A DNA stretch of 5,241 nt, from assembly GCA_002713205.1 (NCBI GenBank), contig PAVW01000015.1, forward strand, positions 1 through 5,241, written 5' to 3'. Position numbers and translations under genes: made by a program. The notes under the pieces are model-generated. The model ran no database searches and was not told the origin of the DNA. It saw only the letters and a program-made list of their open reading frames with translations. Positions 2,727-5,241 of this stretch are shown here, in pieces. This stretch comes from Nitrososphaerota archaeon. Lineage in GTDB: Archaea > Thermoproteota > Nitrososphaeria > Nitrososphaerales > UBA57. Numbering within the stretch: position 1 is the stretch's first letter; each line of letters opens with the position of its first letter.

Positions 2727-2734
2727 TTTATAAT
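2727..2734 (+). promoter_or_regulatory. Candidate TATA box (TTTATAAT) for the HTH operon
   Basis: It lies about 27 nt upstream of the ATG at 2757 and overlaps the 18-bp palindrome. Confidence 0.45.
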
Positions 2735-2748
2735 ACAAATTTGTATTA
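2731..2748. promoter_or_regulatory. Perfect 18-bp palindrome TAATACAAATTTGTATTA (candidate operator)
   Basis: The sequence is exactly self-complementary. It spans the TATA box to the expected transcription start and ends 9 nt before the ATG at 2757. Confidence 0.5.
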
Positions 2749-2756
2749 CAATAATC

Positions 2757-3161
2757 ATGATAGATGAACTAATAAAAAACGATAGTTTGCTTCAGTTTTT
2801 GTTGAATAATAGCCATTTTACAAAAACACAGATTGATTCGTTATTATTGGCTTTTGAGTACAAGATAGAGGGATATTCCCTGGGTGAAATAGTGAAATTA
2901 CGTGACTCTGGTCCTGTGACCAAGGGATCTTATGGAAGAAGTTTAAAGCAATCAAAAAGGAATTTCAGCAAGTCGTTGTATACGTTAGTATTAGCAATAT
3001 ACCTAGGTATATTGGATGTTAATACATTGAATTCAATGATTGAGTTATCTAATAAATTAAAATCAATTAAGGAACTTGAGTTACCTCCTAACATTATAGA
3101 ACAGGTTGAAGATTTAGTAGAAGAAATATGTGATAGGGTTACTGCTGATAAAGTTATTTAG
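2757..3161 (+). CDS. HTH DNA-binding protein, sigma-70 region 4 / LuxR / Tfx-like, about 134 aa
   Basis: FTKTQIDSLLLAFEYKIEGYSLGEIVKLRDSGPVTKGSYGRSLKQSKRNFSKSL matches the pattern LTxxQxxvl...GxSxxEIa...vtxGtvxxxlxxAxxnl. The tracked start at 2724 lies upstream of the TATA box and adds an odd MFIIQICITII leader, so I prefer the ATG at 2757. Confidence 0.65.
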   Translation: MIDELIKNDSLLQFLLNNSHFTKTQIDSLLLAFEYKIEGYSLGEIVKLRDSGPVTKGSYGRSLKQSKRNFSKSLYTLVLAIYLGILDVNTLNSMIELSNKLKSIKELELPPNIIEQVEDLVEEICDRVTADKVI

Positions 3162-3163
3162 TA

Positions 3164-3196
3164 GTGATGTCTTATGTGATATTATTGATATCAAGT
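3164..3196 (+). repeat. Direct repeat copy A (GTGATGT-CT-TATGTGATAT-TATTGATAT-CAAGT)
   Basis: It covers the start codon of the wHTH gene and matches copy B apart from 2-nt and 9-nt insertions. Confidence 0.55.
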
Positions 3197-3724
3197 GATT
3201 ATATTATATTAATTGGAATTACTGGTATTTCATTTTTATTCACAGGAATTATTATTTTATATTTACGTCAGAGTGTATTTGATATTCAACAAAGAAAGCA
3301 AGCTGGAGATATATTAACGGAGATTGTATCTACACTCAATAAATCAATAGATGAGAAGGAAAGTCGTATTATTGATTTAATGATGCGGGTTGATTTACTT
3401 GAATTACGTTTGCAAAAACAAGTGGGGCAAGAAATTAAAAGTGGTTCTAATGTTTATCCAATAACTAATATTAATAGAAGTGATATCACAGATAGTTTAA
3501 GTGATATCAATTTATCAGAAACAGAGGAAGTAATAATTAAGAGTTTAAGTAAGGAGCCTATGTTTGTTTCTGAAATTAGAACACAGATTAATAAGTCAAG
3601 GGAACATACAAGTAGGTTAGTTTCCAGGTTAAGTAAGTTAAATGTGATTAAGAAAAGAAATATTAATGGACAGGTTTCTTGTGAATTGACTGATCGGGGA
3701 AAGGATATTCTAGCTGGTTTGTGA
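3164..3724 (+). CDS. Membrane-tethered winged-helix (MarR/ArsR-like) DNA-binding protein, 186 aa
   Basis: The N-terminal hydrophobic segment is SYVILLISSDYIILIGITGISFLFTGIIILYL, followed by basic residues (C-terminus inside). A coiled-coil-like stretch follows (EKESRIIDLMMRVDLLELRLQKQ). The C-terminal wHTH is LSETEEVIIKSLSKEPMFVSEIRTQINKSREHTSRLVSRLSKLNVIKKRNINGQVSCELTDRGKDIL. The start (GTG 3164 or ATG 3167) is 2-5 nt after the upstream stop. Confidence 0.75.
   Translation: MMSYVILLISSDYIILIGITGISFLFTGIIILYLRQSVFDIQQRKQAGDILTEIVSTLNKSIDEKESRIIDLMMRVDLLELRLQKQVGQEIKSGSNVYPITNINRSDITDSLSDINLSETEEVIIKSLSKEPMFVSEIRTQINKSREHTSRLVSRLSKLNVIKKRNINGQVSCELTDRGKDILAGL
3186..3193. repeat. TGATATCA palindrome, site 1
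   Basis: Exact 8-bp palindrome, read as L-I-S codons. The extended 11-mer TGATATCAAGT is identical to site 4. Confidence 0.6.
3481..3488. repeat. TGATATCA palindrome, site 2
   Basis: GTGATATCAC, read as S-D-I-T. It is 21 bp from site 3. Confidence 0.6.
3502..3509. repeat. TGATATCA palindrome, site 3
   Basis: GTGATATCAA, read as S-D-I-N. Confidence 0.6.
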
Positions 3725-3742
3725 TGTTATGTGATATCAAGT
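3721..3742 (+). repeat. Direct repeat copy B (GTGATGT-TATGTGATAT-CAAGT)
   Basis: It covers the stop codon (TGA 3722-3724) of the wHTH gene. All 22 of its nt match copy A if two gaps are allowed. Confidence 0.55.
3732..3739. repeat. TGATATCA palindrome, site 4 (intergenic)
   Basis: GTGATATCAAGT, located outside the wHTH CDS and 35 nt upstream of the small RHH-like ORF. Confidence 0.6.
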
Positions 3743-3773
3743 TTAATGATATGGTTTGGAATGTGGTGAGATT

Positions 3774-3902
3774 ATGGTAAAAAAATATATTTGTATTACA
3801 AATGACGAGGATTTTAAAATAAGAGCTAGAAAAAGGCTCAAAGAACTTGCAATAGAGCAGGGATGGAGTCTCAAAGAAAGGGCACAAGCAGGACTTGATT
3901 AA
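3774..3902 (+). CDS. Small ribbon-helix-helix-like protein, 42 aa (not in the ORF track)
   Basis: My translation is MVKKYICITNDEDFKIRARKRLKELAIEQGWSLKERAQAGLD, which has a beta-strand-then-helices pattern like CopG/Arc. GGTGAG (3765-3770) sits 3 nt before the ATG, and a T7 terminator lies 43 nt downstream. The protein is short, so the call is tentative. Confidence 0.4.
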   Translation: MVKKYICITNDEDFKIRARKRLKELAIEQGWSLKERAQAGLD

Positions 3903-3944
3903 AAAATGGATAAGGTAATTATAATTAGTAATATATAATTATTA

Positions 3945-3951
3945 TTTTTTT
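3945..3951 (+). terminator. Oligo-T (T7) terminator of the plus-strand regulator operon
   Basis: TTTTTTT lies in an AT-only spacer between convergent genes. The complementary A6 run at 3901-3906 could act as the T-run for the minus-strand stomatin transcript. Confidence 0.45.
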
Positions 3952-3988
3952 ATAAATATTTTGGGTTTAGGTTGTTGTGTAAATTAGG

Positions 3989-4876
3989 TTAAGAAGTTGG
4001 TCTTTCCATAATACTTCTCAAAATATCTTTAATTTTTTCTATATCACTTGCAAGCTCTTTAAATCGTTTTTCGGCTTCAATTATTTTTCCTTCAGATTTT
4101 TGTTGGATCTTCTTTGTTGTCCCAAGGACTGTCCCAAGATCTGAAGTTGTGCCTCTATTACCTACTTCCGTAACTATAATGAGGTTCTTTTCTCTAGCAA
4201 CCTCTGCCCAGGTCTGGAGCTCTCTGAGTCTCAACGCTGCGGGGTCTTTACTGTAGGACTCTGCGGCTTTTGCCATATTTTTCGCTGCCTGTAATTCTCC
4301 CTCTGAGATTATTATCCTACTTCTTTTCTCTCTTTCTGCCTCTGCCTGCTTTGCAATTGCTCTCTGCATAACATCTGGTATAGCAACGTCCCTAATTGCC
4401 ACTGAGTTTACCTTTATTCCCCAGGGATTTGTTACTTCATCAAGTATAACCTTCATTTTCTTATTCAGTTCGTCCCTCTTGCTTAGAATGTCATCAAAAT
4501 CACATTGACCTATTACATCTCTAAGGGTAGTCTGAGAGAGAAGGCTGGAGGCGACAATATAATCTTGGACCTTTATAACGGCATCCAAGGGATCTGCAAC
4601 CTTTAGATAGACTACAGCATCAACATCAACCGTAACATTATCCCTTGTTATAATACCCTGTTTTGGAATATCTAGAGTAAGTATCCTTAGGTCAATAATT
4701 TTAATTTTATCAATTATTGGTATAACTATGAAGACTCCAGGACCCTTTGGGGTGCCAAGAACTCTTCCTAACCTGAAGATTACAGCTCTTTCGTACTCTT
4801 TGATAATTTTAATCATATTAACAAGGAGTATAATTGTCATAATTCCAAGGAATCCTGTTATGAGAAGGTGTTGCAT
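3989..4876 (-). CDS. Stomatin / prohibitin-homology (SPFH, band 7) membrane protein, 295 aa
   Basis: It has an N-terminal membrane hairpin and then the canonical IKEYERAVIFRLGR...TRDNVTVDVDAVVYLKV...TLRDVIG...WGIKV..V.IRDV..P..MQRAIAKQAEAEREKRSRII.SEGE. A C-terminal coiled-coil-like tail follows. Confidence 0.93.
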   Translation of the reverse strand: MQHLLITGFLGIMTIILLVNMIKIIKEYERAVIFRLGRVLGTPKGPGVFIVIPIIDKIKIIDLRILTLDIPKQGIITRDNVTVDVDAVVYLKVADPLDAVIKVQDYIVASSLLSQTTLRDVIGQCDFDDILSKRDELNKKMKVILDEVTNPWGIKVNSVAIRDVAIPDVMQRAIAKQAEAEREKRSRIIISEGELQAAKNMAKAAESYSKDPAALRLRELQTWAEVAREKNLIIVTEVGNRGTTSDLGTVLGTTKKIQQKSEGKIIEAEKRFKELASDIEKIKDILRSIMERPTS

Positions 4877-4903
4877 ATACCGGTTTGAAGCCTTAATCCT
4901 TCA

Positions 4904-4918
4904 AAAATATATCTATAA
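4904..4918 (-). promoter_or_regulatory. Candidate TATA region for the stomatin gene (minus strand TTATAGATATATTTT)
   Basis: An AT-rich TATA-like element about 30-35 nt upstream of the ATG at 4876. Confidence 0.3.
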
Positions 4919-5158
4919 CATAGTAAATAGATAATAACTCTTCAAACGGTCGAGTTTAAGGATTTATGTGTGTTATTGATAGAAACTGGGTTAAAATTGT
5001 GGTTTTATAGTCAATATAGTAAAGAAAATGAGTAAATGTGGGTAAAAATAGAGATTTGATAACGATTATTGTTATGGTTACTAGAGTAATTATGGGTTAC
5101 AAAAATTATTCATATTGTTAAGTAATAAATTAAAGATGTATTGGTTTTAAAATAGTTT

Positions 5159-5241
5159 ATGAAAAAGAGGGCACGTAATCAATTTTTAATTGGGGGGTTA
5201 ATTATGTTAGTAGCCATTGGACTATATTTTTCTGTAGTAAC
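5159..5241 (+). CDS. Partial ORF (5' end only): basic N-terminus plus hydrophobic helix, running off the window
   Basis: My translation is MKKRARNQFLIGGLIMLVAIGLYFSVV..., with no stop before the window end. An alternative ATG at 5204 is preceded by GGGGGG. Only 27 codons are visible. Confidence 0.3.
   Translation, partial: MKKRARNQFLIGGLIMLVAIGLYFSVV

Follow-up and report, generated by a model that had tools for sequence, protein, structure and literature searches.

A conserved palindromic motif clustered at a winged-helix gene near a predicted replication origin in Nitrososphaeria

Why should an 8-bp palindrome occur four times over one small gene and nowhere else in the DNA around it? The question is raised by a 5241-nt stretch of contig PAVW01000015.1 (the window, to which all coordinates without a locus number refer), which comes from a marine member of the Nitrososphaeria (Thaumarchaeota) with near-identical contigs known from marine metagenomes. 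In the window, copies of TGATATCA lie at both ends and in the interior of a gene for a 185-amino acid (aa) protein predicted to carry a membrane anchor and a C-terminal winged helix (Table 1). An initial annotation had read these copies as binding sites for an adjacent DNA-binding protein, possibly with a centromere-like or looping role, or else as a target of restriction or modification. Comparison with related loci shows that the motif is conserved at the winged-helix locus across Nitrososphaeria and that selection acts on it at the nucleotide level; we hold with moderate confidence that the copies form an operator array, probably for the winged-helix protein itself as an autoregulator.

Selection on the palindromes at the nucleotide level

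Exact counts agree with the initial annotation that TGATATCA occurs four times in the window and that GATATC is present only within these four copies. Shuffling with preservation of dinucleotide content gave an expectation of 0.17 copies, and none of 200 shuffled sequences reached four, so that the excess over chance stands as well. The copies do fall in differing reading frames, with ttG-ATA-TCA read as L-I-S at site 1 and agT-GAT-ATC-A as S-D-I at sites 2 and 3, and site 4 lies outside the coding sequence, beginning 8 nt past the TGA stop codon, with the next ATG at 3774. The distance of 21 bp from site 2 to site 3, and the 11-mer TGATATCAAGT common to sites 1 and 4, were likewise found as described, and the stretch common to both gene ends is longer still, namely GTGATGT(c)TTATGTGATAT...TCAAGT. 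At both ends, TGATRT half-sites follow each other at intervals of about 10 bp (3165, 3177, 3186 and 3196 at the start of the gene; 3722, 3732 and 3747 at its end), and 13 of the 23 TGATRT copies in the window are located within 3150-3760 (binomial P = 2.7e-7).

For comparison, we collected 113 further loci encoding a relative of the winged-helix protein (designated by L and a number), 33 from species genomes and 80 from metagenomes. They were retrieved by peptide patterns that include the REHTSR helix, which biases the sample towards proteins keeping the recognition helix. An exact-protein look-up of the winged-helix protein from its GTG start gave no match, and a look-up of the GGGP synthase (GGGPS) encoded in the window returned 10 near-identical marine contigs, which are strain-level replicates only; one homologue carries the label Nitrososphaerales. 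Enrichment was tested on the 103 distinct loci left after de-duplication, with 68 kb of gene regions set against 729 kb of flanking sequence, the latter providing the background density of the 8-mer, and close kinship among loci was handled by this de-duplication and by counting lineage clusters, of which single linkage at 60% identity yielded 18.

The exact 8-mer is found 128 times in the gene regions versus 45 times in the flanks, a 30-fold enrichment, and is present at the gene in 12 of the 18 lineage clusters, where about 4% would be expected to have it by chance at background density. Its variants TGACATCA and TGATGTCA are enriched 21-fold and 12-fold, respectively, and occupy equivalent positions where the exact form is absent, so that 88 of the 103 loci possess at least one TGAYRTCA. 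Among 14 control palindromes of similar A+T-rich make-up, 12 were enriched no more than 2.2-fold, one 3.1-fold, and one 9.5-fold, the last on counts of 4 versus 4. Seven of the 18 clusters have an exact site where the gene begins, at its 5′ end, and in most related lineages one is found 16-60 nt past the stop codon of the upstream gene.

Could the sites be a by-product of the peptide they encode? The S-D-I peptide of sites 2 and 3 is indeed conserved in the alignment, which is the point in favor of a peptide-driven coincidence, and both sites fall in a segment modelled as disordered (residues 88-111), pointing to weak constraint on the peptide itself. In the marine clades, Asp-Ile in this linker is encoded by GATATC in 33 of 38 cases. 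The hexamer serves for none of the 44 Asp-Ile cases outside the linker in this gene, and for 9 of 135 in the other long open reading frames (ORFs) of the same loci. The alignment of orthologues proposed in the initial annotation as a check on synonymous positions gave a majority-codon fraction, computed among sequences sharing the majority amino acid, of 0.95 under the sites versus 0.69 elsewhere (Mann-Whitney P = 6.6e-9), with 0.77 for the invariant recognition helix, and third-position conservation peaks at codons 3-12 (0.85-0.94) and 99-114. In a clade with 45% protein identity, the 19-nt TATGTGATATTATTGATAT at the 5′ array is identical, third codon positions included. Codon choice and synonymous fixation thus exclude a peptide-driven origin, and the shuffles, the 30-fold enrichment and the recurrence in 12 of 18 clusters exclude chance; together with the conserved non-coding sites, they uphold the earlier view that selection acts on the DNA rather than the peptide.

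GATATC is also a known restriction target, and a restriction/modification island of the EcoRV type had been offered as an alternative. It is disfavored by the presence of GACATC and GATGTC, neither of which such an enzyme would recognise, in place of GATATC at orthologous positions, where these forms are enriched 12- to 21-fold. Moreover, the T and A that complete the 8-mer on either side of GATATC are never lost, the position at one gene is conserved class-wide, and the window contains no methyltransferase or nuclease gene. We consider such an island, along with coincidence of either kind, scarcely credible.

The winged-helix protein as candidate binder

An AlphaFold2 model of the 185-aa protein (predicted local distance difference test score, pLDDT, 76) consists of one long helix spanning residues 2-88, a disordered linker (88-111), and a winged helix-turn-helix (wHTH) at 118-184. 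Hydrophobic residues at approximately 12-33 are predicted to form a transmembrane helix, with the remainder up to residue 88 resembling a coiled-coil stalk. The winged helix matches AdcR (3tgn) in profile comparison with E = 4e-5, and Foldseek matches include ZitR, AdcR, BldR and ST1710, as well as AspA and Sso10a; by profile as well as by fold, the C-terminal domain is a MarR/ArsR-like wHTH, that is, a DNA-binding domain. In the alignment, no member of the family departs from the K[ST]REHTSR helix. The family is small, as a search of 1.84 billion proteins gave 109 representatives at E <= 1e-10, and in Pfam no family reached threshold for either this protein or its 134-aa neighbor, with database entries named "hypothetical".

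In the mechanism that we favor, TGATATCA would serve as a duplex-DNA binding site for a dimeric sequence-specific protein, with TGAYRTCA as the functional consensus, composed of TGAT/ATCA half-sites, which are also present singly at a spacing of about 10 bp. We infer that the likeliest binder is the product of the site-bearing gene, as no recognisable DNA-binding domain other than its winged helix is present in every case, and this fits the earlier proposal of binding sites for an adjacent DNA-binding protein. The predicted coiled coil and flexible linkers fit half-sites that are abutted, single, or variably spaced and oriented.

The promoter context of the 5′ site is best seen in soil Nitrososphaeraceae, in which 28 loci share the arrangement AAAAAT-TTTAATAAATA-N15-ATCACATGATATCACATG, with the ATG 2 nt beyond the site. 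Since an archaeal TATA box has its centre about 26 nt upstream of the point where transcription starts, transcription in the soil lineages is expected to begin in or just after the site. A site between a TATA-like box and the start is in the usual position for an archaeal repressor, and the comparison shows this promoter-proximal geometry in the soil lineages. Elsewhere, three lineages have a start codon 0-2 nt past the site, and in two marine clades the start lies inside the site, as GTG-ATA-TCA. In the window, 2 nt separate the end of the upstream gene from GTG 3164, and the winged-helix gene may have its own promoter, possibly with a leaderless start at TTG 3185. As the 5′ array would span the interval from the TATA-like box to the transcription and translation start, its occupancy would block recruitment of RNA polymerase, and it is from this interval that we infer negative autoregulation and the leaderless starts; sites in the coding sequence and at the 3′ end would add cooperative binding, looping or a roadblock.

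The array at the gene start is kept as a whole between the clades compared, and it is the identity of the perfect unit that varies: in the window, the degenerate TGATGTCT replaces an exact site of the next clade, and the exact site 1 takes the place of TTGATATTA in that clade. Inside the gene, the number of sites is kept and their geometry is not. In the sub-clade represented by L047, the variant TGATGTCA is found at the position of site 2, and in the clade with 45% protein identity one site is aligned with site 3 and the second is located 9 bp upstream of it, as opposed to 21 bp in the window clade, so that the placement on the same face of the helix suggested for sites 2 and 3 is not a conserved feature. 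Nitrosopumilus-type loci (L101 at 774, L105 at 2091, L108 at 3307, L112 at 7747 and L037 at 10422) have an intragenic TGACATCA or TGACGTCA flanked by ATCACA repeats, located not in the linker, but within the winged-helix coding region (M-T-S-R-D-I-Q). An internal site hence recurs among lineages, but at differing places in the protein.

At the 3′ end, the block TTGTGATGTTrTGTGATrTCA-AGTTTrAT is retained in three sub-clades despite a differing downstream gene, including that of L048, in which a 223-aa membrane protein is inserted directly after site 4. A site lies within -2 to +8 of the stop codon in three lineage clusters, and in one soil clade it falls where two convergent genes overlap at their 3′ ends. 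Retention of the 3′ site next to different downstream genes and in the convergent overlap indicates that it is not simply an operator of a downstream promoter.

Because all four sites in the window are on the sense strand of one possible transcript, they might instead act in mRNA, with copies pairing into hairpins that affect stability, processing or translation, the last for instance by pausing once the membrane helix has emerged. A 9-bp hairpin between sites 2 and 3 is indeed possible (-10.4 kcal/mol, z = -3.15). However, it is the sequence rather than the pairing that is conserved, with no compensatory changes; the fold is not significant in the 45%-identity clade, where the sites are 9 bp apart (z = -1.3), and neither are the folds of the 5′ and 3′ regions (z about -1). 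Furthermore, the soil 5′ site is positioned upstream of the start codon by the TATA-like box, the motif is also found at a gene on the opposite strand, and neither the window nor L058 gave an Rfam match. Since sequence and not pairing is kept, the lone significant fold is unconserved, and the motif extends to an opposite-strand gene, a role in RNA is very improbable.

Several points weigh against autoregulation by the winged-helix protein. With the upstream gene ending so close to the start, the 134-aa and winged-helix genes may be co-transcribed. Six of the 18 lineage clusters are without the exact 8-mer, some Nitrosopumilus relatives among them, and the soil-clade site in the overlap of convergent genes occupies a place in which a promoter would not be anticipated. 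MarR operators are usually less compact than an 8-bp palindrome. The invariance of REHTSR is in part a matter of ascertainment, because the retrieval patterns contain this helix. Finally, sites kept within coding sequence at a cost in codon choice suggest more than simple autoregulation.

The partner gene and the neighboring replication origin

Synteny between the winged-helix gene and the 134-aa gene immediately upstream extends to nearly all of the related loci, and the order GGGPS, Elf1 (not in every case), 134-aa gene, and winged-helix gene is found in soil Nitrososphaeraceae, in Nitrosopumilales, and in the marine clades nearest to the window. The 4936 homologues of the 134-aa protein are all named hypothetical, none with a Pfam domain, and Pfam, NCBIfam, sequence and profile searches of PDB, an AlphaFold2 model (38 sequences, pLDDT 61) and Foldseek yielded nothing reliable on its identity. 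A resemblance to sigma region 4 or to the Tfx helix-turn-helix was not confirmed and is not claimed. No library or model lends support to the helix-turn-helix label given to this protein initially, or to the ribbon-helix-helix label given to the 42-aa ORF downstream of site 4. The 134-aa gene has a conserved palindrome of its own: TACAAATTTGTA overlaps the end of the TATA-like TTTATAATA, stops 11 nt before ATG 2757, and differs in motif from TGATATCA. Of the 50-odd distinct lineage sequences, from marine to soil, nearly all carry ATACAAnnTTGTAT just ahead of the gene start, with L031 as the one outlier. This palindrome has the appearance of an additional operator, one that would serve a second regulator. 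The 42-aa ORF gave no family match; L045 and L046 preserve its reading frame and share 80% protein identity with it. Promoter-like sequence of the 134-aa gene recurs at the 5′ end of this ORF, in the order ATG, A/T-rich sequence, and ATTTGTATTACAA (3789-3801), with 79% identity over 28 nt.

Almost all lineages have, downstream of the winged-helix gene, a second one for a soluble winged-helix protein, with orc1/cdc6 (Pfam Cdc6_lid, Cdc6_C) beyond it. Canonical pairs of origin recognition boxes (ORBs) intervene, in most lineages just past the first of these genes, and their distance from it is 0.2-0.9 kb in loci of marine, soil and Nitrosopumilus type; the pair in L058 reads TCCAGTGGAAAT-AAAGGGGT on the reverse strand. 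From the ORB pairs, the second winged-helix gene and the adjoining orc1/cdc6, we conclude that the conserved block flanks a predicted replication origin. No ORB was detected in the window at up to 3 or 4 mismatches. L045, the only contig of the window clade reaching the ORBs, has them and the second winged-helix gene about 2.4 kb downstream, just beyond the point where the window ends, and stops short of cdc6. In the window clade, an SPFH gene and small ORFs are inserted between the winged-helix gene and the origin. This segment (3903-5241, compared with 980-3300 of L045) is rearranged, in that a small membrane ORF which starts at 5160, after SPFH, precedes SPFH in L045 (1156-1416).

ORBs, which are bound by Orc1/Cdc6, resemble the palindromes in being repeated elements close to orc1/cdc6, and TGATATCA was considered as one; it was rejected, as it is unlike the consensus TCCA[CG]T[TG]GAAA[TC][GA]AAGGGGT (PMC4164010) and canonical ORBs are present separately in related loci. 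Nitrososphaeraceae and relatives of Nitrosopumilus also have a TGAYRTCA where the second winged-helix gene begins, at its 5′ end, again as GTG-ATA-TCA. In a low-GC marine group, an extra copy that shares the extended context, ATCACA-R-TGATATCA-CAT, is conserved behind an A/T-rich box about 1.66 kb upstream, just past the 3′ end of GGGPS, which suggests another local target. Between the winged-helix gene and cdc6, four loci (L013, L024, L079 and L089) contain tandem TTAACAC, repeated from 3 up to 6 or more times (after 10693 in L024); these repeats belong to soil lineages in which no second winged-helix gene was detected, and a related TTAACA-rich sequence is found in L014, L020 and L106. The archaeal GGGPS, Elf1, winged-helix, ORB and cdc6 block is also present in L011 (VFGY01000050.1), deposited as a metagenome-assembled genome of a SAR202 cluster bacterium; given this archaeal block, L011 is probably a mis-binned thaumarchaeal contig.

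Proximity to an origin gives weight to the centromere-like or looping role that had been mentioned initially. The site cluster might be mainly structural, with the membrane protein holding origin-proximal DNA as a tether, in a centromere-like manner or for sequestration, and autoregulation being secondary; this agrees with autoregulation on the binder and differs on the purpose of binding. The N-terminal membrane helix and long coiled coil of the model would suit such a role, as would the location of the gene next to ORBs and orc1/cdc6 in other lineages and the retention of intragenic and 3′ sites, where an operator of a promoter is not needed. The wHTH resembles AspA, the centromere binder of pNOB8, though this match is generic to wHTH domains. 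An archaeal analogue is SegB of Sulfolobales, which has a palindrome just upstream of the start codon of its own operon and other sites that are mostly intragenic, and for which a function in chromosome organisation and segregation has been proposed (PMC12284271). SegB differs in being a soluble ribbon-helix-helix protein, in recognising TCTAGA-S-TCTAGA, and in having a ParA-like partner, SegA, and the window contains no gene for an ATPase of the ParA/SegA type. Likewise, the fold of the candidate binder is MarR/ArsR-like, rather than that of ParB or of ribbon-helix-helix proteins, each locus has just 1-4 sites, regulation is the simpler explanation for a 5′ site between the TATA-like box and the start, and the window clade has retained its sites even after moving other genes between the winged-helix gene and the ORBs. 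A mainly structural purpose is rather unlikely.

Alternatively, the sites might bind another factor, such as the second winged-helix protein, the 134-aa protein or Orc1/Cdc6. The occurrence of TGAYRTCA at the second winged-helix gene, the constant adjacency of the 134-aa gene, and the neighboring origin are in agreement with this idea. However, the second winged-helix gene and cdc6 are absent from the window, which is nevertheless the richest in sites; the 134-aa gene has its own, different palindrome and no recognisable DNA-binding fold in its product; and Orc1/Cdc6 has its canonical ORBs elsewhere. We regard binding by any of these factors as unlikely, and an operator array for the winged-helix protein itself remains our preferred reading.

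Table 1. Coordinates of sites, genes and related elements in the window and, where a locus number is given, in related loci
Feature	Coordinates	Strand	Remarks
5′ site array over the gene start	3164..3200		Degenerate TGATGTCT 3165-3172 (overlaps GTG/ATG starts), TGATAT 3177-3182, site 1, GTGAT 3195-3199
Site 1, TGATATCA	3186-3193		Inside TTGATATCAA
Site 2	3481..3488		Inside GTGATATCAC; codes S-D-I-T, predicted disordered linker
Site 3	3502..3509		Codes S-D-I-N, predicted disordered linker
3′ site array	3721..3752		TGATGT 3722-3727 overlapping TGA stop, site 4 3732-3739, TGATAT 3747-3752
Site-bearing winged-helix gene, 185 aa, predicted membrane-anchored	3167..3724	+	TGA stop 3722-3724
Partner gene, 134 aa, all-alpha, fold unassigned	2757..3161	+	Stop 2-5 nt ahead of winged-helix gene start
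Likely promoter and operator of 134-aa gene	2727..2756		TATA-like TTTATAATA 2727-2735; palindrome TACAAATTTGTA 2734-2745
GGGP synthase (PcrB)	1575-2318	minus	
Elf1 zinc ribbon	2315-2596	minus	
42-aa ORF	3774-3902	+	3′ of site 4
SPFH/band-7 protein	3989-4876	minus	
ORB pairs	L058 1830-1859, 1892-1921; L045 3237, 3297; L016 11171, 11232		About 61 bp apart
Extra copies, low-GC marine group	L076 8225, L082 623, L087 7323, L096 8312, L098 3595, L100 8186, L116 8339		

Relation to known systems and significance

Among the closest parallels are autoregulated archaeal winged-helix repressors of the MarR/ArsR type that act on palindromic operators in their own promoters, such as BldR and ST1710 (3f3x, 3gfi) of Sulfolobus, which share with the window protein the winged helix and a palindrome at the regulator's own gene. 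In contrast to them, the window protein is predicted to be membrane-tethered and to dimerise, if at all, via its long coiled coil, in place of the dimer fold of MarR; what it would recognise is a compact palindrome of 8 bp accompanied by single half-sites, with extra copies inside the gene and at its 3′ end, and its locus is fixed beside a replication origin. ToxR and CadC are also winged-helix proteins tethered to the membrane by a single transmembrane helix, and have an N-terminal wHTH of the OmpR type and a C-terminal periplasmic sensor. In the model of the window protein this order is reversed, with an N-terminal anchor, almost no external part, and a MarR-like wHTH at the C-terminus. The ParB-parS and Noc-NBS systems have palindromes clustered near the origin, some of them in the binder's own gene (parS in spo0J), and Noc links DNA to the membrane, although the folds of both proteins are unrelated to a MarR-like wHTH and Noc uses an amphipathic helix instead of a transmembrane anchor. 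Literature searches for TGATATCA retrieved only primers and unrelated uses, and those for thaumarchaeotal membrane winged-helix regulators and Nitrosopumilus origins retrieved nothing on a locus of this type; no segregation machinery of Nitrososphaeria turned up in limited literature searches.

Ammonia-oxidising archaea are among the most abundant microbes of oceans and soils, and to our knowledge almost nothing is known of their gene regulation, replication timing or chromosome segregation. The present comparison identifies a cis-element and two uncharacterised genes that are held beside the origin across the class, with sites strong enough to override codon choice inside a gene. It also offers a direct hypothesis, of one protein, one 8-mer and one place, which could be addressed in the culturable Nitrososphaera viennensis and Nitrosopumilus maritimus. 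If the sites function only in autoregulation, they would constitute an unusually well-conserved operator of a membrane-tethered archaeal regulator. More tentatively, the locus may represent a class-wide origin-adjacent module of Nitrososphaeria, in which the protein binds the TGAYRTCA cluster at its own gene and thereby fixes the origin region to the membrane. We consider this rather unlikely as matters stand; if true, the tether would give archaea a hitherto undescribed means of positioning or sequestering the origin or of segregating the chromosome, and as such it would bear on the organisation of archaeal chromosomes.

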